UHGV virus genome: UHGV-0224297
Origin: a virus
Reading direction: 5' to 3' (one strand)
DNA: 15,109 bases
This document shows positions 490 through 12,900 of the stretch, one piece after another. Both the position numbers and the translations under genes were made by a program. Positions within the stretch are counted from its first letter, which is position 1. Each line of letters opens with the position of its first letter. The notes under the pieces are model-generated. The model was not told the origin of the DNA and made no database searches. It saw nothing but the letters and a program-made list of their open reading frames with translations.

Positions 490-519
490 TTTAATACTCC
501 TTTAGGTAAAACATGTCGT

Positions 520-545
520 AAAAAAGGACCCCGGACATTCCGGGG
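520..545 (-). terminator. intrinsic terminator (minus strand)
   Basis: Hairpin CCCCGGA-CAT-TCCGGGG (529-545), followed on the minus strand by UCCUUUUUU (plus A-run 520-525). Lies 13 nt after the 558..947 stop. Confidence 0.7.
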
Positions 546-557
546 CCAAGACTACAC

Positions 558-947
558 TCAATGATCTAGTTCGATAGCACCAGCCATCTTGCCCCGTTCT
601 TCGATAACGATCAGATAACGGTCGCGAGATTTGCTTTTAGCGAGAGTTAAGACAACAGTAGGGTCGCACGTTTTCGTGGTGATAGGAAGAACCTCTCTTG
701 CAACGGAATCGAGTAGAAAGTAATAACCTGCGGGACACATCGTGCCGCCATCAGCTTTTACCAGAATATAGCGCCCGTCTGCGCCGACTTCTTGGCAGAT
801 TGTTTCACCGACTTCACAAACTTCAAACCCCGGAGGATTGTACTGGTAATCGGTATTGTTGTTTGGGGTTAGCAGTAAATCGTTAACTTGGGTAGATGCT
901 GCTACACCCAGGGAGAAGAAGAATGCTAAAGCGCAGATGAGACGCAT
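558..947 (-). CDS. small predicted secreted protein (129 aa), 4-Cys paralogue A
   Basis: ATG at 945-947 with TAAGGAG RBS 6 nt upstream. N-terminal hydrophobic segment MRLICALAFFFSLGVAAS looks like a Sec signal peptide. Shares a Cys signature with the 958..1368 product. Confidence 0.75.
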   Translation of the reverse strand: MRLICALAFFFSLGVAASTQVNDLLLTPNNNTDYQYNPPGFEVCEVGETICQEVGADGRYILVKADGGTMCPAGYYFLLDSVAREVLPITTKTCDPTVVLTLAKSKSRDRYLIVIEERGKMAGAIELDH

Positions 948-957
948 GAGTTACTCC

Positions 958-1368
958 TTAAATTTTAAGTTTATCCATAGCTACAACGATAGGTTTTTCC
1001 GAAGTGTCTAATATCCCTACCATCGGCACACCATCTACGACTTTGAAGAATGGTTTGTTGTTGCCTGAGCACAAATGTTTGTCGTTGTATTCAAGACGTT
1101 GTGCCTTCCACGTTTCAAGGTTGAGTACAGACATTGGGCTGTCGTAGCACCAGGCACCACCTTGCTCAACGATGAACACGTATCTGCTACCTTTGTATTT
1201 AAACAGGTTCTTCGCCTGGCAGTACAGACCGTCAATTTCCGTACAGTAGAAATCATCGGTGCTATTGACGTACTTAATACCGTCTGGCAACTGTATTGTT
1301 TTTGCTGATACGTTAACAGAGAACAGAATAGCAATTGCAATGAGAAGAGTGTTGATGATAGTTTTCAT
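958..1368 (-). CDS. small predicted secreted protein (136 aa), 4-Cys paralogue B
   Basis: ATG at 1366-1368 with AAGGA-type RBS. Signal-peptide-like N-terminus MKTIINTLLIAIAILFSVNVSA. Its stop overlaps the RBS of the next gene. Shares C-x(6-8)-CQ ... G-x-RY-[IV]-[LF]-[VI]-x-x-GG-x-x-C with the 558..947 product. Confidence 0.75.
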   Translation of the reverse strand: MKTIINTLLIAIAILFSVNVSAKTIQLPDGIKYVNSTDDFYCTEIDGLYCQAKNLFKYKGSRYVFIVEQGGAWCYDSPMSVLNLETWKAQRLEYNDKHLCSGNNKPFFKVVDGVPMVGILDTSEKPIVVAMDKLKI

Positions 1369-1379
1369 GATAAAAGTCC

Positions 1380-1865
1380 TTAGTATTTAGATTGTTCCGC
1401 GTATTTCTTAACCAGGTAAGCGAATTCAGCAACACCGATATCACCGAACCAAATCAGATAACCGGGGTCGATGTTGTAGTAATAACCGACGAGTTTCTTG
1501 GTGTGTGGGTTGTATAGCGTTACGATGTATTCCCAGCCACAAGCATTAGCTTTACAACCACCACTTTCAATCCAGATTTTGTTGTTGATGTTTACCGGAT
1601 ACATGTTACCGCCAGGGCCATCCATGTATCCTTTAGAGCCGAACATACCATCCAGTCCCACCGGGTCTAGTGTTTTATCAACAACGGCTTTAAATGACTT
1701 ATCGGTATCGTACAAGTCGTTGATGTTCGGGCACGCATTTGGCTGACCTTCCCAAGCGTTTCCGTCGCAGGTAAGCAATTCGTCTACGGAGGCCGCATCT
1801 ACAGTTGGTGTGGCACCGATAAACAAGAAAACCAGAAAGAACATCAGTGTATGTAAACGTTTCAT
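1380..1865 (-). CDS. small predicted secreted protein (161 aa)
   Basis: ATG at 1863-1865 with CTAAAGGAG RBS (plus 1874-1882). Signal-peptide-like N-terminus MKRLHTLMFFLVFLFIGATPTVDA. Four Cys in the mature part. Confidence 0.75.
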   Translation of the reverse strand: MKRLHTLMFFLVFLFIGATPTVDAASVDELLTCDGNAWEGQPNACPNINDLYDTDKSFKAVVDKTLDPVGLDGMFGSKGYMDGPGGNMYPVNINNKIWIESGGCKANACGWEYIVTLYNPHTKKLVGYYYNIDPGYLIWFGDIGVAEFAYLVKKYAEQSKY

Positions 1866-1883
1866 TGTAACTACTCCTTTAGA

Positions 1884-2270
1884 TTATTCGGCAGGGCGAT
1901 TTAAAGTAACACGGCCAATTAATTCGGCGTTATGAAAGAAGTCCACAGCGGTATAGTTACCAACTGATAGCGGATGGATACTAACTGACATTACTTTCGG
2001 TTGTTCGCAAGCAATATCGGTTAGACGTTGGTAGACTTGTGCACGGGTGTCAGCAATGAGTAATCCCGTACACGTTTCACCACGCACTAAACGATAAACT
2101 TGCAGTTTACCGAAACTGCGCATTAACGTGGGCGTCTCATCCGGGTTGATAATCGGTGACTCAGGAGCCGGTTCGTAATAGCGGACATCCGAATCACCGA
2201 AAGCATAAGTGCCAGTAATTCCGACCGCACAGAAAATAATGATAGTATAAAGTATAGTTCTGATATTCAT
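1884..2270 (-). CDS. small predicted secreted or membrane-anchored protein (about 128 aa)
   Basis: The ORF track starts at a GTG (2274-2276), but the in-frame ATG at 2268-2270 is the more plausible start. The RBS is weak (GAGTG). N-terminal hydrophobic stretch ILYTIIIFCAVGITGTYA could be a signal peptide or a signal anchor. Start codon choice is uncertain. Confidence 0.65.
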   Translation of the reverse strand: MNIRTILYTIIIFCAVGITGTYAFGDSDVRYYEPAPESPIINPDETPTLMRSFGKLQVYRLVRGETCTGLLIADTRAQVYQRLTDIACEQPKVMSVSIHPLSVGNYTAVDFFHNAELIGRVTLNRPAE

Positions 2271-2298
2271 TTTCACGCACTCTAAAAAAGATTAATAC

Positions 2299-2760
2299 TT
2301 ATTTGTTAGGACGGCTGTGTCCACAGTTCTGGAAAAACGTTTCGTTAAGGCGTTCGCCTTCTACGGTAAACCCTGCTGCCACGTTATCGTTAATAAGTAA
2401 ACTAAAATGTTTTGCCTCACCGACCGCTTTAATGAAATCCGCCCAGGCTTGTTCTGAACGGTCGCTACCGTCGATGGTAGGGATACGGTATTTTTTACCA
2501 TTCACGACAATATCGAGCGCGTTATCCTCAGCGTTTGTTGCCCCTGCAGGTTCTCCGTAATACCAAACATTGTGCCCGTAAAATTTACGATTGGCGGTTT
2601 CTGTACTGCAATTGATAGAGAGGCTGTTGCCTTCAGTGTCTTCGATTTCGTAGATGGCTTGGTCTGGAGACTGGATTTGTTCCCAGCTATTGATTGCTGC
2701 GTGTGCAGTATTGAGGCCCAGCGTTAAGAGGATGGTTAAAAGGGAAGTAAAAAATTTCAT
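2299..2760 (-). CDS. small predicted secreted protein (153 aa)
   Basis: ATG at 2758-2760 with AAAGGAG RBS (plus 2768-2774) 7 nt upstream. Signal-peptide-like N-terminus MKFFTSLLTILLTLGLNTAHA with an AHA-A cleavage-like site. First gene after the terminator and conserved element at 2810-2886. Confidence 0.75.
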   Translation of the reverse strand: MKFFTSLLTILLTLGLNTAHAAINSWEQIQSPDQAIYEIEDTEGNSLSINCSTETANRKFYGHNVWYYGEPAGATNAEDNALDIVVNGKKYRIPTIDGSDRSEQAWADFIKAVGEAKHFSLLINDNVAAGFTVEGERLNETFFQNCGHSRPNK

Positions 2761-2809
2761 TGTTTTGCTCCTTTAAGGCGTTAATGTATAAATGAGTTAA
2801 TCATAACTC

Positions 2810-2836
2810 TCACCTAAGTAATATATATCTGAAATT
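2810..2836. promoter_or_regulatory. conserved element copy 1 (core TAAGTAATATATATCTGAA)
   Basis: The 19-bp core at 2815-2833 is identical to 7179-7197, with similar flanks (TCACY before, WTT after). It lies between the terminator at 2856-2886 and the start of the second minus-strand cassette (2760). Strand of action is unknown. Confidence 0.5.
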
Positions 2837-2855: not shown

Positions 2856-2886
2856 AAAAAATAAAAGGTGGGGGTAAACCCCCACC
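2856..2886 (-). terminator. intrinsic terminator (minus strand) ending the upstream cassette
   Basis: Hairpin GGTGGGGG-TAAA-CCCCCACC (2867-2886), followed on the minus strand by UUUUAUUUUUU (plus A-tract 2856-2866). Lies directly after the 2891..3469 stop. No U-tract on the plus-strand side. Confidence 0.8.
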
Positions 2887-2890
2887 GACG

Positions 2891-3469
2891 TTATACATCG
2901 AACCGATACTGCCGGGAGTTAATGAGGAACTCAGTATTCAGCTCAATCCATTCGAGTAATTCCCCCAACGGTAATCGGTTTGGGTTTTCTAACTCGATAG
3001 ATGCAACCGGATAAGAGTTTACTAATTCCGTAATCGCCTCAATCCCCTCTTGCGTTCCATCGTCTTCTAAGGTGATTGTAAACGGCATATCGGTACGTTT
3101 CGCATTAGGATTGTACAAACTGACTTTCGTTGCTTGCACAAACGCAGTCAGGTCGTCTCGCATAATGCGAATATCTGGCGCTAGAACTACCCAGAGATGT
3201 TGCCCTGGCTGGAGTTTACGTTTTGCGTAGTTTACGAAAGGACTTGCCGTCAAGTTCTCTAAACCACAACAGATGTTACGTAAACGAATTCCTCGCGGAT
3301 CTTTGTAATCCACGTCGAAAATCCCCACAGGTTCATTCGCTGCCCGCTTTATCAGAAAGGCTAATACCGTGTCCGCCCTTTCTGGTAAGGAAAGCCCAAC
3401 TCCCTCAAGCTCCCCATCGACGAGATTTTCCAACCAAACGTCTTTTCGCATTTCTATTAATCGGTACAC
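2891..3469 (-). CDS. hypothetical protein (192 aa)
   Basis: ORF with GTG start at 3467-3469 and GAGGTGG RBS 5 nt upstream. The first in-frame ATG, 18 nt downstream, has no RBS. Stop at 2891-2893 is followed by an intrinsic terminator. No recognisable motif. Confidence 0.6.
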   Translation of the reverse strand: MYRLIEMRKDVWLENLVDGELEGVGLSLPERADTVLAFLIKRAANEPVGIFDVDYKDPRGIRLRNICCGLENLTASPFVNYAKRKLQPGQHLWVVLAPDIRIMRDDLTAFVQATKVSLYNPNAKRTDMPFTITLEDDGTQEGIEAITELVNSYPVASIELENPNRLPLGELLEWIELNTEFLINSRQYRFDV

Positions 3470-3481
3470 GGTTCCACCTCA

Positions 3482-4255
3482 CTAATAATTAAGTTTTACA
3501 TCGGCAATAAACAGCAACTGTTTACCGTGTTGCTGCACTTCTTTCCAACCTAGCTTCATAGCAGCGTCAACAACATCTATCATGCTGTAACGAGACATCA
3601 ACGCGGTTGATTTTGTTCCTGACATTAAGTAGAGCGGCTCATTAGGGCAACGGTCGCGAGCATCAGGAAGTTCCCGAGAGACTGCTGATCCTTCGGGTAC
3701 GGTAACAACATGAATCACGGTAAATGGTCTCTTGTGGGTTAAATAGATACGAAACCCAACGTGTTCAGACTCATGAAAGACTTTCTTTACAACCACATCT
3801 TTTAGTGTCGTTTGAACATCAATCCCAGGTAATATCATGGATTCGCGAGAAACGAAACAACGACTATTTTCGACCGTGGAGAAATAATTACGTAACGGTA
3901 AACTGGCGTTATGATCGCGCAGTTTTTTGCTCAGTAGATCGAAGTTCAGTTCTTTAACTTTCTCTAGCCACTCTTTGGCTTGTTGAACGTAATAACTACC
4001 AACGGTGCGATAAGTTAATACCTTACCTGCGCTTACTTTCCAAAGTTTGATGGTTAGTGAGTTTGGCTTATAGCGACGATACTCACCCCGCGTATAGTTG
4101 ATGCGCTCGTAGCGCTCTACATCGTCAATCGGTGCAGATTCGACCGATTGTAACTGCAGCGTACGATCTAATCTATCGGCTAATAGTAGCGATGTTAGCG
4201 GACCTTCGATCATATACGGTTCGGTTTTAAAGATATCGTCTAAATGGACTTTCAT
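3482..4255 (-). CDS. GW-QLLF C-terminal motif family protein (257 aa)
   Basis: ATG at 4253-4255 with AAGGAA RBS. C-terminus LGWKEVQQHGKQLLFIADVKLNY. N-terminus MKVHLDDIF and internal LPGID ... GFRIY are shared with the 6069..6806 product. Confidence 0.75.
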   Translation of the reverse strand: MKVHLDDIFKTEPYMIEGPLTSLLLADRLDRTLQLQSVESAPIDDVERYERINYTRGEYRRYKPNSLTIKLWKVSAGKVLTYRTVGSYYVQQAKEWLEKVKELNFDLLSKKLRDHNASLPLRNYFSTVENSRCFVSRESMILPGIDVQTTLKDVVVKKVFHESEHVGFRIYLTHKRPFTVIHVVTVPEGSAVSRELPDARDRCPNEPLYLMSGTKSTALMSRYSMIDVVDAAMKLGWKEVQQHGKQLLFIADVKLNY

Positions 4256-4322
4256 TTCTATTTCCTTCTTAACAAAAGCCGCGACTAAAGCGCGGCAGTT
4301 AGAGAAAGTATATTTTCACTTA

Positions 4323-5474
4323 TTAAAGGTCAGCAACAAACAGTAGCTGACTGCCATACGGTTCGACAGATTTCCAACCGTAATCTTTACCGATCGTCGT
4401 TAAATGACTGGTAGTTAACTTTTTATCAATCGTCCGCAGATGTATCATTAGCGTATTGGACTCTGCCGCATCAAGTAACATCGCAGGTTCTTTTTCAGTG
4501 CGGTCGTCCGCTTTCGGGAAGAAACTGTAATATTGACTTTTGGGCAGATCGATTGACAACGTATAATTTTTCTTTGTAACGAATAACGCCATCCCTTCGA
4601 AATTGCAATCGAAACGATATTCCCAACCTGCTTCTGCTAAAACGTCTTTTAGCATTTCCATGACTTTAAGCTGATTAACACTAGGCAGTCGGTAAATTGC
4701 AAGACCACTTGGGAAAATGCGTATACCATCGACGACACTATCGGTGGTTTCGTCAATAAGTTCAGGATAACGTTGTGAGAAAATATGATCGCTCTTGCTT
4801 TTCTCTTCAACGTCACGAATGAATTGGGCTAATTCGTCTCTTAAGGCGGACATTTGATTTTCTCCTTTGTCTTCAATAATCAGGTGGGGTTCGCCGCTAA
4901 TTAAAATATGGTAAACGAGGTCGTCGGTAGAACGATAAGTGAGTTTGATAGCTTTATCACTTAACAATTCGTAGCGGAAGAAACTTTCGTACCAACTTAA
5001 GCCGAAATCGTTTTGTGTGAGTTCCTGCTCAACTTTGATGGTTTTTGCTTCAAAGCCGATTAACCCGCTTAATAACGCAAGTTCTGGTTTAGTTAAAATG
5101 GCCATGCCGTGAAAGGGCACTTGTTCAAGCTGAAAACATAAATTACTGACTTTACCACTTGGGAAGACTTTAAACATAATCTTCCGGCTGCTACTCTTTT
5201 CTCTAACAACGAGTTTACGGTAATTTAGTCCACAATTTGAGTAAACCGCGAACTGGTAACCTTCAATTTCTTCATCGTAAGTACAGACATCGACAGGCGC
5301 GATAATCTCATCGTATTCACTAAGTACACAGCAGCCCAAGTTATAACCAAACAACTCGCGTTGTAATGAAGACTCGATGGTTAAGCTTGGCAGAGGCCAA
5401 GTTCGATTATAGCATCTGTCCATCAGTTCTTTTAGGATCTTGGCATGTCCTGGTTTAGAAATAATATTTCGCAT
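4323..5474 (-). CDS. GW-QLLF C-terminal motif family protein (383 aa), with a second degenerate internal copy
   Basis: ATG at 5472-5474 with AAAGGAGAG RBS. C-terminus YGWKSVEPYGSQLLFVADL. A degenerate internal copy reads AEAGWEYRFDCNFEGMALFV. Confidence 0.75.
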   Translation of the reverse strand: MRNIISKPGHAKILKELMDRCYNRTWPLPSLTIESSLQRELFGYNLGCCVLSEYDEIIAPVDVCTYDEEIEGYQFAVYSNCGLNYRKLVVREKSSSRKIMFKVFPSGKVSNLCFQLEQVPFHGMAILTKPELALLSGLIGFEAKTIKVEQELTQNDFGLSWYESFFRYELLSDKAIKLTYRSTDDLVYHILISGEPHLIIEDKGENQMSALRDELAQFIRDVEEKSKSDHIFSQRYPELIDETTDSVVDGIRIFPSGLAIYRLPSVNQLKVMEMLKDVLAEAGWEYRFDCNFEGMALFVTKKNYTLSIDLPKSQYYSFFPKADDRTEKEPAMLLDAAESNTLMIHLRTIDKKLTTSHLTTIGKDYGWKSVEPYGSQLLFVADL

Positions 5475-5503
5475 TTTTACTCTCCTTTAGGGTTTTTCGT
5501 TAC

Positions 5504-6043
5504 TTAAGCAGGGTAAGCTAAGAATAATAACTGCTGGCCGAGTTTACGTACGGTATGCCAGCCGTGCGCTTTTGCTGTTTCTACTAATGTTTCCCAATCG
5601 TCAACGTTGCAACCGTCTTTTTTCAGTTTTGTAAGTAGTGTCTCTGCTTCTTTATCTGTCAGCAATAATCCTGGGTTACTTAACGTACACGTAAGAGGGT
5701 TAGGGAAATACGCGTAGCGTCTTACAAAAGTAAAGTCTACGAGATAGTGTGCTTTCCCCGTGTCTAGAAGCGTAACAACATCCACGCCGCCGTCGTAGGA
5801 CGCGCTCGTCACTTTCCATCCGGTACCGGAAAACAGTTGACTGAATAATTTGGTAAAGATATCCCCGGAACCGCGATAATAAAGCACAGCATCTTCGTTG
5901 ATTTTTTCTATTTCAATACCAGTGATCGTTGTACCCGGTTGGATAACGTTAGACAATATACTGTACGGGCTTTCAAAACGATGTTTACCCACACCCAGGT
6001 TAACAAACTTAATAGCTTGTTGTTTCATTTCGATACTAATCAT
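5504..6043 (-). CDS. GW-QLLF C-terminal motif family protein (179 aa)
   Basis: ATG at 6041-6043 with AAAGGAGAAA RBS. C-terminus AHGWHTVRKLGQQLLFLAYPA. An internal GW is also present (SGTGWKVTSASYDGG). Confidence 0.75.
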   Translation of the reverse strand: MISIEMKQQAIKFVNLGVGKHRFESPYSILSNVIQPGTTITGIEIEKINEDAVLYYRGSGDIFTKLFSQLFSGTGWKVTSASYDGGVDVVTLLDTGKAHYLVDFTFVRRYAYFPNPLTCTLSNPGLLLTDKEAETLLTKLKKDGCNVDDWETLVETAKAHGWHTVRKLGQQLLFLAYPA

Positions 6044-6068
6044 GATATTTTCTCCTTTAGGTTTTTAC

Positions 6069-6806
6069 TTACGCGGTTTTAATTAACAGCAGATAGTCCT
6101 TCGTAAACTCAGCACAACTCCACCCTCTCATCGTGGCGATTTTACGAAGATCAATTTTCTCGTGATATTTCAATAAGGGATCGTCTGAGTTAATCTCAAC
6201 CAGGTGGGTGGCTTTAGAAATCGTTTCCACATCTGGGATCTGTTTTGCTAAGTCGGATGCAATCAGTTCAATAACGCGGTAACCCTTTAACACAGAAACA
6301 TAGATGCGCAAACCATATAGCGTGCCCTCGTCTTCTAATGGACAAAGATCGATGCCGGGTCCAAGCAGTGATAACTCGACGTTATCGGGAAGGTTTTCTG
6401 CATTTCGGAGTAACCCTATCCCATTTCTAAACAGAGGGAAGTAAGAGAATAGTGGTGGTAAAGCCCAACCGTTCCCAATAAGCACATCATCGATACTAGT
6501 AGGCGTGTTCGCAAGAAGACGAATGTGGTCAGCCACAACTTCAAGTTCGGCATCACTGATCAACTTATAGATTAACATGACACTGGTTTCGGTATTAATA
6601 ACGAAGAAGACGCGGTTGGCGTAACTGCCTATCACGTATTCGTCAATCATACAGTCGATAACGTCACTGTCTGGATAATCTTCAGGTTTAATTGTTCCAG
6701 CATCGATTAACTTAGCAGGTTGCGATTGTTTTAATAGTTCGTTAACAACAGTAGAAGAAAGTTCTAAACTGGTGTTAGTAAAGATATCGTCTAATAATTC
6801 TCTCAT
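6069..6806 (-). CDS. GW-QLLF family protein, divergent member (245 aa)
   Basis: ATG at 6804-6806 with a weak RBS; first gene after the divergent control region. C-terminus RGWSCAEFTKDYLLLIKTA is a degenerate form of the motif. N-terminus MRELLDDIF and internal LLGPGID ... GLRIY match the 3482..4255 product. Confidence 0.7.
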   Translation of the reverse strand: MRELLDDIFTNTSLELSSTVVNELLKQSQPAKLIDAGTIKPEDYPDSDVIDCMIDEYVIGSYANRVFFVINTETSVMLIYKLISDAELEVVADHIRLLANTPTSIDDVLIGNGWALPPLFSYFPLFRNGIGLLRNAENLPDNVELSLLGPGIDLCPLEDEGTLYGLRIYVSVLKGYRVIELIASDLAKQIPDVETISKATHLVEINSDDPLLKYHEKIDLRKIATMRGWSCAEFTKDYLLLIKTA

Positions 6807-6901
6807 GATTTACTCGCTAATCTCAATAAAGGGGAGTCTATTATTATGGATTGCAGAAGAGGAATAAGGAAGTCACTACGTTCCTCTGGGAAGAGTATGT
6901 C

Positions 6902-6918
6902 GGTATACTACGTATACC
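6902..6918. promoter_or_regulatory. inverted repeat GGTATAC-TAC-GTATACC (7-3-7), candidate operator
   Basis: Perfect 7-bp arms with a 3-bp spacer. A third GTATAC lies at 6935-6940 and a GGTATCC at 6963-6969. A TATAAATA (T4 late-promoter-like) reads on the minus strand at 6924-6931. Confidence 0.35.
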
Positions 6919-7107
6919 TCCGCTATTTATATCCGTATACATAATGCCCCCTACCCCCTACCGGTATCCCGAGTAGCAGAATAAAGGGGCAGACTGTAAA
7001 ATTTTAGTACCTGTTATCGGAAGGTACTAAATGGAGTGTAGTCTTTAAGCCGTTTGAGCAGCTCATTGAGACTTTCTTTTTTAGTAGACATGATCTGTCA
7101 CCCCAAA

Positions 7108-7116
7108 TGGTATAAT
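7108..7116 (+). promoter_or_regulatory. candidate sigma70 extended -10 box (TGGTATAAT)
   Basis: Exact TGnTATAAT at 7108-7116 on the plus strand. No good -35 (TAGACA at 7085-7090 is 20 bp away). Would start transcription near 7123, toward the 7225 gene. Confidence 0.4.
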
Positions 7117-7143
7117 CAATCCGTTTCGAATGAAACGTGTCCG

Positions 7144-7172
7144 TAGGGACTGAAGTGCCAGTTCAGTCCCTA
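7144..7172. other. strong stem-loop (11-bp stem, 7-nt loop)
   Basis: TAGGGACTGAA-GTGCCAG-TTCAGTCCCTA. No U-tract on either side, so it is not a canonical terminator. Lies immediately adjacent to element copy 2. Confidence 0.55.
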
Positions 7173-7173
7173 T

Positions 7174-7199
7174 TCACTTAAGTAATATATATCTGAATT
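7174..7199. promoter_or_regulatory. conserved element copy 2 (core TAAGTAATATATATCTGAA)
   Basis: The 19-bp core at 7179-7197 is identical to copy 1. It sits 28 nt upstream of the ATG at 7225, next to the 7144-7172 hairpin, in the divergent control region. Confidence 0.5.
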
Positions 7200-7224
7200 C
7201 AATTCCGATCTAAGGAACGTCCCG

Positions 7225-8340: not shown

Positions 8341-8396
8341 TCGGTTGTAACACACGTCGGTCTTAGACCACTAACCTTTTGAAATGGAGAGCTGTT

Positions 8397-8606
8397 ATGT
8401 CTATTAAAGAGTTCTCTTCTGCTGAGCATATTCCAGAAGAGTTTAAGAAAATCGGTAACGTCAGCGCTTTCGGCGATACCGTTGATCATGTAACTGGTAA
8501 ACTGGCTGCTGAAGCCGAAAAAATTGGCGGCGACGCATTCAAAGTTATCGGTATTTCCGGCAACAACAAACTGCACGGTAACGCGATTGTCTACAAAAAA
8601 GACTAA
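8397..8606 (+). CDS. DUF1471 (YdgH/BhsA/McbA-like) domain protein without signal peptide (69 aa)
   Basis: ATG at 8397-8399 with GGAGA RBS (8386-8390). The track start at 8379 is a TTG and an in-frame stop lies at 8364-8366, so no N-terminal extension is possible. The C-terminal FKVIGISGNNKLHGNAIVYKKD resembles enterobacterial BhsA-type proteins as I recall them (ending ...TLHGTAVIYK). No hydrophobic N-terminal segment. Confidence 0.65.
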   Translation: MSIKEFSSAEHIPEEFKKIGNVSAFGDTVDHVTGKLAAEAEKIGGDAFKVIGISGNNKLHGNAIVYKKD

Positions 8607-8609
8607 GCG

Positions 8610-8667
8610 AAAAAAAAAACGTGCTACTCCTACCCTCTTAGAGGGTAGGAGGTTACTTTATTTTTTT
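8610..8667. terminator. bidirectional intrinsic terminator between convergent genes
   Basis: Perfect 11-bp stem CTCCTACCCTC-TTA-GAGGGTAGGAG (8627-8651). Flanked by an A10 run (8610-8619) on one side and a T-rich run (8652-8667) on the other. Sits between the DUF1471 stop (8606) and the minus-strand gene stop (8658). Confidence 0.8.
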
Positions 8668-9920
8668 CGTGCTTTAAAGCGATGCATTTCTAAATACACT
8701 TTTTCCCAGGGACCGAATGGACCAACGATTGCTTGAGCATCGTTAATCTTCTTCTGATTATACCACCGGGCTTCACGAAAGACGTAGTTTTGACTGTCGA
8801 ATTCGGTAGTGTTAAATACCCACTCACCTTCCTCCCACGTAGGCCAATAACCTACCGTCTTACCAAATCGATTATTTAAGTACCCTAATGGTTTTTCAGA
8901 ATCAGGATCGTTGGGGTCCTTGAGGTAACAGCGTCCCCAAACGGCGTTATGCGAAACACCCACAACTTCTTCTTCTAAATACGGATTATCTACCGTAAAG
9001 ATAAAAGAGGATTCGTGGAGTAAAAGCGCCTTCAGTGTTTCAGGGTTACGAATACGTTGAACGTTGGTAGGCGATGATAAATCCCCTACACCGATGCTAT
9101 CCCAGTCGTAATAACGGCGGGTTTCCAGAACGGTCCGTGCAAGATCAAAATTCGGTAAAGAAATCATGATCGCACGGTCAGAGAAATAACCGTCCGGGGG
9201 CAACCAACGTAACAATCCGCCTATGACGAAACCCACGGTTTTCCCCGTAATAGACTCAGGCAGCGATATCATTAACGTGGAGTAATAGTCGCGTGTAGTG
9301 TCGAGCTTGTTTAGCGTAAGGTTGGCGATTGGATAGGTTTTAACATTCCCTAGCTGACCAAAAACCATACAGCCAATATCTGGCGTACATGCTCTCCGTA
9401 CGATTTTACCGGCCCCAGGCAATCGAACACCTACGGTATCCGTCTGGTGTGGTACCCATTGACCGTTAATGTTGTACAGCACACTATTACGGTATTTGTC
9501 TTTCCACTTGTCCTCACAAACGACGACAACGTCATCAGCATCGTCTAAGCTGAAATCTTGACTGTGGTGGTACCCTGGTGGACACAGATATGTTTCGACA
9601 GGTACATCGGCATTAATTGATTGGTAGTGTGCCCAACTGAATTCCAGTTTCGGCAATCCAGCCTTTAGAGTGGGAATGACGTTTCCGGCCTTTTCGTTTA
9701 ACCAATCTTGTAAAGTGTCTGTTCGGTTTTGTAGTTCAGCAAGATGGTATTGACTGACTAACGTATAGTCTTTACCAAGTGCACTTAAACCGATCTCAAA
9801 GGTGTGGTAGTCTGAACACAACGTAGTTAAGGGTTGCGTGACATCGATGGCTCCCCAGGTACGGGACTCTCGAGAGAAGCCAAAAGCGCTGTCGGGCCGC
9901 ACTTGATAAGCAGTAGTCAC
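8658..9920 (-). CDS. hypothetical protein (420 aa), Trp/Tyr-rich, possibly structural or enzymatic
   Basis: Long ORF with GTG start at 9918-9920 and a GAGG box about 10 nt upstream; no in-frame ATG near the start. Stop at 8658-8660 lies inside the bidirectional terminator region. Transcribed opposite to both flanking plus-strand genes. Confidence 0.65.
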   Translation of the reverse strand: MTTAYQVRPDSAFGFSRESRTWGAIDVTQPLTTLCSDYHTFEIGLSALGKDYTLVSQYHLAELQNRTDTLQDWLNEKAGNVIPTLKAGLPKLEFSWAHYQSINADVPVETYLCPPGYHHSQDFSLDDADDVVVVCEDKWKDKYRNSVLYNINGQWVPHQTDTVGVRLPGAGKIVRRACTPDIGCMVFGQLGNVKTYPIANLTLNKLDTTRDYYSTLMISLPESITGKTVGFVIGGLLRWLPPDGYFSDRAIMISLPNFDLARTVLETRRYYDWDSIGVGDLSSPTNVQRIRNPETLKALLLHESSFIFTVDNPYLEEEVVGVSHNAVWGRCYLKDPNDPDSEKPLGYLNNRFGKTVGYWPTWEEGEWVFNTTEFDSQNYVFREARWYNQKKINDAQAIVGPFGPWEKVYLEMHRFKARKK

Positions 9921-9989
9921 AGCTCTTTTTCCTCTATAGATTCAAGTCATAGTATGAACTTCGACGCCCACGGACTATAGGAGTAGATA

Positions 9990-12900
9990 ATGGCTGTCGT
10001 CTTAGACCCACACTTCAAAAAACCGGGGAATAAAATAACCGGTGAAGCGGTCGCCGTCATTGGTACGAAATACCGAATGTTGGTACCTGCCCACGCCCCT
10101 TTTTTCACCACATCCCTGGTGGTCAAGAGCGGCGGCAAAATACTGACCTTAGGCGACGATTACGTTATTACACACCCGTACGAGACTGGTATGTTGCGCA
10201 CAGCCTATCTCATTCACGGGATGATTTGGATTGTTAATGACAAATACAAATCGAATTTTACTGTAGATTACCATGCTGTTGGTTGTGGTGAAGCAACCCA
10301 AGAGCAGATTACCGCAGAGCGCGAGCTTAATAAAGGTAAATACCCCTCCGCGTGTCAGTGGGACACCGTCATCGGAGACGTTTACTTTCCACCGGTCGAT
10401 ATCCAGTTCGATTGGGAGAATTGGAAAGGTGAACTGGAGCTAATGCAGGCCATTGCTGGGGTAGGCGATTCGTTAGGGGAAGTCGTGAGTCGACTTAACC
10501 CAATCGCGCGCAATACACTGGATTTGGAATATCGTGCTAATAGTAAGGTTATCACTTCCGAGCAGTATGCCGCGTACGACAATAAAGGCGGTTTCACCTA
10601 CAACACAGCTCGCCACCGTTATAGCTTGAGTTATAACGCGACAACCTTTAACGACTATTCCCTGTTGGTGAAACACAGAATTCCTGCTATTCTGCCAGAC
10701 ATGACAAAGTTGAATCCGAACGAACAGATCGATTGGATGCTCTGTTATGCCAACGGCGGTGCAAGCATTCTACGGTTACAGCTAAAACAGCGCAAAATCT
10801 CACTGGTCTTAACTGTCGCTATTGGCAGTGGTTCAACAAACTACGATTATACTTTAATCAACGGTTTAACTGACGATGAGTTAAAAAACGATATCGATTT
10901 TAGTGTAACCCGACAACCCGGAAACGGCGTTTACGTAATCGTAGTAAAAACAAATAAACAGACCATGGATTATACATTCAACGTCGATACGCCGCCTGAT
11001 GAGTTCTCGGCAGGGTATTCGAAAACGGATGTAGCCAAATGGTTGAAGTCTAAAACGAACATTAACCTGAACTGGTATGCGGCTGAAAACGATTATATTC
11101 AAATTCGTTCTTTACCCGGTGCGCCGGAGCCTGACGTCGATAACGATGTTTACCAGTTAATAGTTAAGTATCATCAGTTGGTTGAGCAGCTGTATCGTAA
11201 TGCGCCTGCGCACGAACACGTTACACGTAAGGACAACCCACACACAGATACGTGGGGTCCGATCCGTGCGTTGGAGTTGAACGGCATTGCGTCGGATGCA
11301 GCGTTAGCTTACGGGAAAACGAAGCCGCAGTTAACGGATTATGTTAATGCTAAGTATCCAACACAAGCGACGTTGACAGCACAAAAGAAACTATTGCGCA
11401 CGTCAGCTTCGAAAACAGCCGACGGAACCATTGGAACGCTACCCGGTTTTACTTCGTTCACGACAGAAGTTGATCCGGTTTCGATGTCTAAATACGTGAA
11501 CCCTTATTTTAGCGAAAGCTATGTTCGTCAAGGTCACACGTATCATGGCGCGCTTCGTTACACAGGAACGAAGAATGGATTTAGTGCTTCTTTTAATGCG
11601 GTGCCTGCCAACCTGCAAGATATTGACTTTATTGTTACCGGACGTAAAACAGCGTCAGGTAATGAAGCAGTCGGTACGGCTGGTTTACGTTTCTACGAAA
11701 ATCCCGGTAGTAACTCCGGCAAGTACGTAGAAATTATCGGTCAAATCTGGGGAGGTACTCTTACTATCGAACTGGCGTTGCACGGTTACGGGAATCCGGT
11801 ACCGTCAGTTCGGTATATTTCTCAAGCTCCTAATCCGGCAATACCGGATGGGGATTTTACGCTGCGTTTTCAACTGAAGCGTACAGGGAACGTGTTTGAC
11901 GCCGTTATTACCGTAAATGGTAAAACGTATAGCGCTCGGATTAACTTCGATAACATGGACGCTGCGTTAGAAGCATTGGAGAATCGGCATCACTTTAAAT
12001 CGCTGATCAATAATGTTGCCGATGGCGTCACTATTAGTTCGCAAAACAAAGGTAACACGGTTACCATTAAGAAAGCACCTGACGTCGTTGACGAGACACG
12101 TTTAGGTGCCCAGTTTGTCGTTGACCCGAAATCCATTAAGTTCATCGGCCAAGGTTCTACCGATGTTAACGTGGGTAATAACCCGGTAACGTTGCAAGCG
12201 GGCGATAACCAGCTTGTGCTATACCCCGATGACCGTGGATTACTGTGGCGTGGTAAGAAGCTCTTAGACCCCACCACGGTAGCGCCGTATTTGCCGGGCA
12301 ATACTGCAGGCGGAACGGGATTATTCTACGGTGCATCTACAGCTACGGTGGAGCTTACCGGTAGCGGGATTAAAGCATCACCATTCGTGGCAACGTTCAT
12401 TCTTCCGGTTGCCGAAGACGTTACTACGTTAGCGTGTTGGCAGTTAACGGACGAATTCGGTACGGCTGAAAACCTCGCGGCAACCCCTGCGTTAATCGAA
12501 AAACTGGACGCTGAGTTTACCGGTAAATTGGTTGCAGCTAAATCGTACATTAACGACATGCAACTTACCAGCTCAGTTACTATCGACAAAATTACCTTTG
12601 GTTTGGGTAACGTTGCGAATACACCCGATGTCGATTTGCCGATCTCTACAGCACAGCAGGCGGAGTTAGATAAATATTCGCCTAAAGTACACCACCACCC
12701 ATTTACCGCATTTGGTACCGGGAACGCAACCACCGCGAAACGTGGCTTGATTAAATTTGGTCTGGATGTGGACGATGCGACTTTAGCACTCGATGGTAGT
12801 GTGGTAATGGCGCAGACTTCCCAGATTGAAAAATTGGAAAATGCTGTCGGTGGCGTTGACTCGGAGGCACGTCTTGACATTATACGTTTTGGTAAGTCAG

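Follow-up and report, generated by a model that had tools for sequence, protein, structure and literature searches.

A clade-wide operon of predicted exported proteins in SPN3US-type jumbo phages includes a phage-borne variant of the Ivy inhibitor family

Ivy-type inhibitors insert a disulfide-closed loop into the active site of the enzyme they block (PMC7677548), and Ivy controls lytic transglycosylases as well as lysozyme, at least in the account of Clarke (2010) as it is cited in PMC3660660. Bacteriophage T4 carries an inhibitor of its own, Spackle, an early, periplasmic and disulfide-bonded protein that acts on the tail lysozyme gp5 (PMC7677548). Nucleus-forming jumbo phages have been studied almost wholly for the events they cause in the cytoplasm, and the words periplasm, superinfection and signal peptide are absent from a 2026 review of their biology. 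Here, we analyse a cassette of five minus-strand genes in the virus genome UHGV-0224297, of which a stretch of 15,109 nucleotides (the window) was available; the genes are named g1 to g5 in transcription order, from position 2760 down to 558. The cassette is the local form of a clade-wide operon of apparently exported proteins, and its third gene encodes a phage-borne variant of the Ivy inhibitor family. A conserved operon of this type points to an envelope layer in jumbo-phage infection.

The cassette and its phage clade

The five genes are closely packed, with intergenic gaps of 28, 18, 11 and 10 nt. They comprise g1 at 2299-2760 (153 amino acids), g2 at 1884-2270 (128 amino acids from its ATG, or 130 from a GTG at 2276), g3 at 1380-1865 (161 amino acids), g4 at 958-1368 (136 amino acids) and g5 at 558-947 (129 amino acids). 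AGGA-type ribosome-binding sites precede four of the five starts, the site of g2 being weak, and the start codons are conserved. On the same strand, an intrinsic terminator at 2857..2886 (stem GGTGGGGG-TTTA-CCCCCACC followed by a T-run; hairpin 2886-2867 with 8 pairs, 7 of them G-C) closes the upstream gene at 2891-3469 and forms the upstream limit of the unit, while a second one at 518..547 (stem GGCCCCGGA-ATG-TCCGGGGTC and a T-run; hairpin 547-527 with 9 pairs, 7 of them G-C) ends it downstream. An initial annotation, made from the letters of the window, had described these five open reading frames (ORFs) as a single unit bounded by terminators, and the coordinates, the gene lengths and the strength of both hairpins all bear this out. 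Between close relatives, the ratio of nonsynonymous to synonymous divergence is 0.01-0.18 for all five genes, which marks them as real coding genes under purifying selection and rules out an annotation artefact. The synonymous divergence of g1 and g3 exceeds that of their neighbours in the same comparison, and this suggests allele replacement instead of fast change in place; such replacement points to g1 and g3 behaving as exchangeable accessory genes would be expected to.

None of 50,697 GenBank phage records matches the window closely. At 8400-10600, its structural genes share 72-75% DNA identity with those of SPN3US, phiEaH2, Asesino and relatives, which are jumbo phages of ~240 kb in the family Chimalliviridae, and this places the window among the uncultivated relatives of SPN3US and phiEaH2. 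Longer genomes of the same clade are available. A 220,786-bp IMG/VR contig carries g5 at 100% identity; NZ_CP173450.1 (L150-L154), which has 232 ORFs and was deposited as a circular 'plasmid' of 221,873 bp from a human urinary E. coli isolate, has 77.6% DNA identity over the cassette and is referred to below as the complete relative; and AALRCZ010000008.1 (L012), a 223,413-bp contig in a Salmonella assembly, is a complete genome of the clade. The locus is therefore that of a phage, a point on which the initial annotation had kept a bacterial origin in reserve. The presence of clade genomes inside E. coli and Salmonella assemblies makes these two bacteria the likely hosts. Their deposition as a 'plasmid' and as a contig of a bacterial assembly also suggests a carrier state or culture contamination. 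Rfam and tRNA scans of the window gave no matches. Among the virion genes, an ORF of 69-75 amino acids at 8379-8606 on the plus strand has a DUF1471/BhsA-like domain (NCBIfam BhsA, E 3.6e-12); it is kept in SPN3US-like phages and sometimes annotated there as 'multiple stress resistance protein BhsA'. The phage version is odd in having no signal peptide, since BhsA-type proteins of bacteria are exported.

The cassette is syntenic across Seoulvirus, Erskinevirus and more distant relatives, with a ~190-amino-acid gene on one side and, on the other, a ~160-amino-acid gene followed by a ~200-amino-acid gene and an SMC-like gene. The number of signal-peptide genes at the locus is three in the most distant relatives (L021-L024), four in SPN3US, EC001, SPAsTU, phiEaH2, Stratton and Asesino, five in the lineage of the window and six in two genomes that have two YfjT-type genes (L011 and L013). 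The run of five had at first been considered unusual for a phage early region; it is real, but it is a syntenic feature of the whole clade and not an oddity of the window. Products of the four-gene cassettes (ACQ60_gp086-gp083 of SPN3US, gp201-204 of phiEaH2/Stratton and gp201-204 of Asesino) are all annotated as 'hypothetical protein', and these cassettes share with the window syntenic orthologs of g2, g4 and g5, the same flanks and the same promoter-like element. Clade-wide identity is 45-52% for g2 (phrog_9424), 36-50% for g5 (phrog_5248, with a conserved CPAGYYF motif) and ~30% for g4 (phrog_8968). The two four-cysteine proteins g4 and g5 and the third-position protein of SPN3US/phiEaH2 are paralogs (hhalign 94%, 98% and 89%), whereas g2 forms a family apart (<13%), and hhalign gave no relation of the g2, g4, g5 or third-position families to Ivy-like proteins. 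Searches of Pfam, NCBIfam, PADLOC and PDB sequences with g1, g2, g4 and g5 returned nothing usable, and a word-indexed protein search with g5 found near-identical sequences only. A PDB match of the g4/g5 profile to ThreeFoil was discarded as the sum of three weak repeats.

Every product of the cassette begins like a signal peptide. The hydrophobic core, scored as the Kyte-Doolittle mean over 10 residues in the 15 large ORFs of the window, reaches 2.55-3.32 at the N-termini of g1 to g5 and is ≤2.0 in the other ten. One or two basic residues precede it in each of the five, and small-x-small sites follow it, namely AHA/A (g1), TYA/F (g2), VDA/A (g3), VSA/K (g4) and VAA/S (g5), with cleavage predicted at AHA/AI after residue 21 of g1, at VDA/AS after residue 24 of g3 and at VSA/KT after residue 22 of g4. 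A hydropathy scan of g1 to g5 found no membrane segment beyond the N-terminus. The mature parts contain 2, 2, 4, 4 and 4 cysteines, which are invariant or nearly so among orthologs (C51 and C146 in g1, C67 and C88 in g2); the signal-peptide-like N-termini and paired cysteines described initially are thus both present, the cysteines being even in number in each product. In orthologs, the N-termini keep their hydrophobic character while their sequence varies. A crude feature filter classed 10 of the 232 ORFs of the complete relative as signal-peptide-like, and five of these ten form the contiguous cassette run; by our own calculation from the filter counts, the chance of such a run is ~1e-5. We infer from these features that the five products are exported to the periplasm, where g2 may have either a cleaved signal peptide or an uncleaved signal anchor.

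The weak ribosome-binding site and ambiguous cleavage site of g2 could be taken to mean that the hydrophobic N-termini are not export signals, but products of wrong starts or membrane anchors of cytoplasmic proteins, in which case the grouping would be meaningless. This is barely credible in view of the retained hydrophobicity of ortholog N-termini despite sequence change, the conserved start codons, the ribosome-binding sites at the other four genes, the paired and conserved cysteines, the adjacency of half of all signal-peptide-like genes in a 232-gene genome and the alignment of g3 with periplasmic Ivy described below. A spanin or lysis-cassette identity was also considered and rejected because the lipobox is not conserved: the cysteine in the signal segment of g2 is missing from the SPAsTU ortholog. 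The cassette of the complete relative is not adjacent to GH108 or SLT genes. Elsewhere in that genome (L150 33248-33727), a 159-amino-acid protein with a lipobox (LASC) lies near a GH108 gene and could be a spanin.

The unit is headed by a 24-nt AT-rich promoter-like element, TCAGATATATATTACTTAGGTGAG, at 2809..2832 on the minus strand, which ends 48 nt before the start codon of g1 and is also denoted by its TCAGATATATATTAC stretch. The conserved element reported in the initial annotation is real, since 31 nt at 2810-2840 recur on the same strand at 7174-7204 with 87% identity and the element is kept across related phages. Its core is near-invariant at the head of the syntenic unit in the six named four-gene phages and in distant IMG/VR relatives, although the proteins behind it are merely 30-50% identical. 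The complete relative has nine copies (≤5 mismatches), all on the main coding strand, against none in shuffled sequence, and six of the nine lie 47-51 nt ahead of an ATG. No sigma-70-type promoter site was found before g1. A scan of IMG/VR with the 14-nt core gave, among the matches listed, mostly unrelated contigs. Jumbo phages that encode RNA polymerases each have a conserved AT-rich motif of ~10 nt near -10 of their early promoters, which are read by the virion polymerase (PMC7598289; PMC8244752), and on this basis the element is probably a phage promoter, a candidate for the virion-RNA-polymerase type and the early class. The AT-rich class, which is conserved and set at a constant spacing ahead of start codons, resembles the early promoters described for phiKZ-type phages, and the assignment of the cassette to an early region is an analogy with these.

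Other units headed by the element have features of their own. In the window, the second copy is followed directly by a perfect hairpin, GGGACTGAAC...CTTCAGTCCC, and the ~370-nt leader between this copy and the gene at 6069-6806 contains a 25-codon ORF and a G-rich tract; the interval 6807-7204 on the minus strand has no Rfam match. Four consecutive paralogs of 257, 383, 179 and 245 amino acids occupy 3482-6806 on the minus strand and have in common a C-terminal domain, ~110-140 residues long, that closes with GW...(G)QLLF (BLASTP E 4e-10 to 3e-4). A close relative (L015 1770-2141) has an extra 123-amino-acid gene between the promoter-like element and g1, and in the complete relative this gene follows a different copy of the element, near 169,400. 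Units of this promoter class thus appear to exchange genes.

A divergent Ivy-fold protein and a YfjT-family neighbour

The first clue to the nature of g3 was the resemblance of its GGCKANACGWEYIV to the Ivy loop CKPHDCG, and a profile of its close homologs searched against the PDB ranked Ivy second (E 1.1), aligned at that loop. A HMMER profile search of 1.84 billion representative proteins gave 57 matches, of which 29 were aligned with g3 and two close homologs; 26 of the 32 members of this alignment match Pfam Ivy (PF08816), with a best E of 7.6e-12. For g3 itself, there was no PHROG or Pfam match, and the NCBIfam Ivy model NF007443 scored 18.6 bits against a cut-off of 180 (E 0.0013). Aligned by hhalign, the g3 family and E. 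coli K-12 Ivy match at 96.8% (E 2e-10), with CKANAC of g3 placed on CKPHDC. An AlphaFold2 model built from the deep alignment has a pLDDT of 85.7 and a pTM of 0.77, a confidence for which this alignment was needed, as 11 close homologs gave a pLDDT of 44. A Foldseek comparison, which the initial annotation had proposed as a check, returned Ivy structures for all of the top eight PDB matches to this model (1UUZ, 4PS6, 1XS0, 1GPQ) with probability 1.00 and target-normalised TM scores of 0.62-0.68, whereas the next match had a probability of 0.11.

In the predicted disulfide loop, C104-KANA-C109, both cysteines are kept without exception across 33 sequences and line up with the two of CKPHDC. A second pair, C33/C45, is nearly invariant in the g3 family, and we take E. 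coli Ivy to have no cysteine pair of this type. The residues within the loop vary, from CKANAC in g3 to CKAHAC, CKSNAC and CKANTC in E. coli homologs and mostly C-E/Q-x-H-N-C in distant relatives. By profile alignment and predicted structure, g3 is a divergent member of the Ivy superfamily and not an Ivy ortholog, and Ivy is therefore no guide to its target. Viruses seldom carry the Ivy fold. A search of the BFVD viral structure library with the g3 model gave nothing better than E 0.4, tblastn with g3 found none in the 50,697 GenBank phage records, and E. coli Ivy had one match among GenBank phages, in phage PHB10.

Similarly, g1 has a recognizable bacterial counterpart. It matches YfjT of E. 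coli K-12 by BLASTP (E 3e-16 over 116 residues; 27% identity) and by hhalign (99.4% over 128 columns), and Pfam PF27224 (YfjT), a model newer than our local Pfam copy, is precomputed on 10 of 12 g1 homologs. On these alignments, g1 is a YfjT-family member. YfjT, which is encoded in the cryptic prophage CP4-57 of K-12, resembles g1 in its equal length, its signal peptide and its two conserved cysteines, and the papers that name it do no more than list it. The 50,697 GenBank phage records contained no g1 homolog. The likeness between g5 and the lipoprotein YfjS, a neighbour of YfjT, is suggestive but unproven: it is weak, covers ~90 residues and varied with the alignment used, hhalign scoring 53% (E 1.4e-4) in one case and 13% in the other; hmmscan found no PF20494 (YfjS/YafY) domain in g5 or g4 and g5 has no lipobox.

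Homologs in E. coli islands and the link to phage T7

Searching with the cassette DNA gave matches of ~70% identity in 2452 of 5426 complete E. coli genomes (~45%). Most of these island matches cover g3 and g4 and some cover g2 and g3, in the gene order of the phage and within islands of the CP4-57/SpLE2 type. O157 Sakai carries g3 and g4 homologs as ECs_2799/ECs_2800 within the phage-like element SpLE2, where a dynamin/YjcZ/patatin operon precedes them and yfjQ-yfjX-yeeS-yeeT-cbeA-yeeV follows directly; in other E. coli strains a frameshifted g2 remnant lies directly upstream of the g3 homolog. ECs_2799 is 59% identical to g3 of the window. ECs_2800 is 75% identical to g4 of two sister phages (L016 and L017), 62% to g4 of the window, 37% to that of SPN3US and 27-30% to those of the most distant phages. 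Among GTDB species representatives, a search with g4 found the Shigella flexneri chromosome only. ECs_2799 (L026 6817-7500) is annotated as a protein of 227 amino acids with a 65-residue N-terminal extension; it seems to be an in-frame fusion of a remnant of an upstream signal-peptide gene with the Ivy-like gene, whose part begins at residue 66 with a start codon and a signal peptide of its own. The remnant is related to a 180-amino-acid gene of the locus L002 (7098-7640).

Since g2 and g4 belong to core families of the phage clade, and the bacterial copies are nested in one phage lineage, transfer from a jumbo phage into E. coli islands is the simplest explanation. We accordingly read the g2-g3 and g3-g4 pairs as having moved from a jumbo phage of this lineage into the islands, while g3 itself probably entered the phage earlier from bacteria; both directions are inferred.

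One of these bacterial homologs has been linked to a phenotype. A preprint describes a CRISPR-interference screen in an E. coli O121 strain on which T7 forms no plaques (10.1101/2024.04.20.590424). Knock-down of hypo_04657, a protein that its authors call Ivy-like with a CKANTC loop, raises T7 fitness, and the efficiency of plating of T7 then becomes 1.09, 1.5 and 1.0 relative to permissive K-12 (10.1101/2024.04.20.590424). The single-guide RNA (sgRNA) used for validation, GGGAATATAAAAATTACAGC, agrees with Sakai ECs_2799 in 20 of 20 bases. Like the phage genes, the pairs in Sakai and O121 are adjacent g3 and g4 homologs in the same order; unlike them, they are chromosomal, have the CKANTC loop and have no g1 or g5 alongside.

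These neighbourhoods also bear on two explanations in which the proteins protect against something other than phages. The initial annotation had offered an array of orphan immunity proteins as an alternative, and this does not hold for immunity to type VI secretion, contact-dependent inhibition (CDI) or bacteriocins, as the cassette has phage genes as neighbours in the phage and the dynamin/YjcZ/patatin operon and yfjQ-yfjX-yeeS in E. coli, with no adjoining toxin genes in either setting. A related idea is that the phage itself uses the cassette as immunity against weapons that other bacteria direct at the periplasm (type VI muramidase or amidase effectors, colicin M, pesticin-type bacteriocins), keeping the infected cell alive in the gut until it bursts. 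Small, predicted exported and disulfide-bonded proteins, one of them with an inhibitor fold for wall-cleaving enzymes, would suit such a role, and variable gene number with replaced alleles of g1 and g3 is the pattern of immunity-gene arrays. We nevertheless consider it improbable, because no effector, Rhs, CDI or bacteriocin gene adjoins the cassette in the phage or the islands, there is no sequence match to solved immunity proteins and the sole recorded phenotype concerns a phage.

The breadth of the island homologs, together with the whole clade genomes in bacterial assemblies (the 221,873-bp 'plasmid' and the 223,413-bp contig), could alternatively indicate morons. The phage would persist extrachromosomally, and the cassette would guard its carrier bacterium against lysozyme of animals or further host factors, a role classically proposed for Ivy. 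This appears very unlikely: the core genes are kept in strictly lytic relatives that infect the plant pathogen Erwinia, the operon has a phage-specific promoter and no sigma-70-type site before g1, and the canonical lysozyme-binding loop is not kept.

Proposed role and comparison with known inhibitors

The interpretation that we favour, and hold tentatively, is that a single jumbo-phage operon of exported proteins forms a periplasmic shield that blocks wall-cutting enzymes, in the manner of exclusion by Spackle. The operon would be transcribed from its phage-specific promoter, probably early, soon after infection; its five products would be exported via Sec, lose their signal peptides, form disulfides in the periplasm and there shield the envelope of the infected cell. 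Of these, g3 would bind peptidoglycan-cleaving enzymes through its disulfide-closed loop and block them, the likeliest targets being the tail-borne lytic transglycosylase or lysozyme domains of other phages, kin included. Blocked wall cutting would then prevent a second infection, in the way that Spackle acts against the gp5 lysozyme of T4. The remaining products, g1, g2, g4 and g5, would probably bind other periplasm-exposed targets in the same role, and the g2-g3 and g3-g4 copies in E. coli islands appear to serve the bacterium as a phage barrier. Action in the envelope, as first suggested for the cassette, gains support from the Ivy fold of g3, Ivy being a periplasmic inhibitor of lysozyme and lytic transglycosylases, and from the E. 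coli ortholog reported to be needed for T7 resistance, while the particular envelope role is our reading of this evidence.

The complete relative encodes a 2377-amino-acid SLT-domain protein of virion type and a 228-amino-acid SLT-domain protein with an N-terminal signal or SAR-like segment. As phages of the clade carry such domains, a periplasmic inhibitor could stop kin or unrelated phages at the wall. The smaller protein (L154 16997-17683) is a likely endolysin. Because this exported SLT enzyme exists in the same genome, the most serious rival is lysis control, in which the exported proteins, g3 above all, would restrain the phage's own SLT-type endolysin or host lytic transglycosylases and so avert early lysis. 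Retention of the cassette in all relatives would also be expected for a core infection function of this sort. We regard lysis control as rather unlikely, since g3 is absent from SPN3US, phiEaH2 and more distant relatives in which the rest of the cassette is present, phage lysis genes are missing from the surroundings of the island homologs in E. coli, which have been tied to resistance to an unrelated phage, and the comparable T4 inhibitor does not act on the endolysin (PMC7677548).

Several observations weigh against a shield that blocks wall-cutting enzymes. SPN3US and phiEaH2, like Asesino, have four-gene cassettes with no Ivy-like g3 and no YfjT-type g1, and with a further g4/g5-family paralog as the third protein, which leaves the conserved core of g2, g4 and g5 without an assigned fold. 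These core families have no Pfam, PDB-sequence or PADLOC relative, and no model of PADLOC-DB v2 matched g1 to g5 or YfjS. The Pro, His and Asp of the canonical CKPHDC are absent from the g3 loop, and the early timing of the promoter is an analogy. The reported need for the g3 homolog or its operon in a very strong T7 block comes from a preprint with a single sgRNA. CRISPR interference is polar, so that the g4-like gene 15 nt downstream and later genes would be silenced too, and the authors of the screen group hypo_04657 with surface-structure genes (10.1101/2024.04.20.590424).

A wider proposal is that SPN3US-type Chimalliviridae in general carry this operon as a periplasmic shield not described before, and that in E. 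coli the captured parts, the Ivy-like protein with its partner, form a barrier in the envelope that blocks the wall-cutting enzymes of incoming phages. We consider this possible yet doubtful. If true, it would amount to a new class of defence that acts in the periplasm before DNA entry, and it would provide a function for y-genes such as yfjT. The same genes occur in nearly half of complete E. coli genomes, and the cassette offers a route into the uncharacterised yfjT, ECs_2799 and ECs_2800. One of these E. coli genes has a very large reported effect on T7 plating, and the phage cassette provides a testable hypothesis for those genes as a defence that precedes DNA entry.

Two known systems frame this comparison. 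With Ivy (PF08816; 1GPQ, 1XS0, 1UUZ, 4PS6), whose fold is a five-stranded antiparallel sheet flanked by helices, g3 shares by prediction the order of two helices, two strands, a disulfide-closed C-x4-C loop, three strands and a C-terminal helix, as well as the position of the loop and a signal peptide. It differs from Ivy in its low identity (~12-17%), its CKANAC loop, its extra cysteine pair on the N-terminal side and scores below the curated Pfam and NCBIfam cut-offs, and in being phage-encoded within an operon of exported proteins. T4 Spackle (gp61.3) corresponds to the role proposed for g3 as a small, signal-peptide-bearing, disulfide-bonded periplasmic protein directed against an incoming tail enzyme; by their sequence features, all five cassette products could be small exported proteins of that type. 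The two are not homologous, and searches of PDB sequences matched no Spackle chain. Spackle, a helical bundle, docks next to the active-site cleft, whereas Ivy-type proteins insert a loop that lies between beta-strands (PMC7677548), and g3 has a predicted beta-rich Ivy fold. Finally, Spackle is a single gene, whereas the phage cassette described here comprises five.

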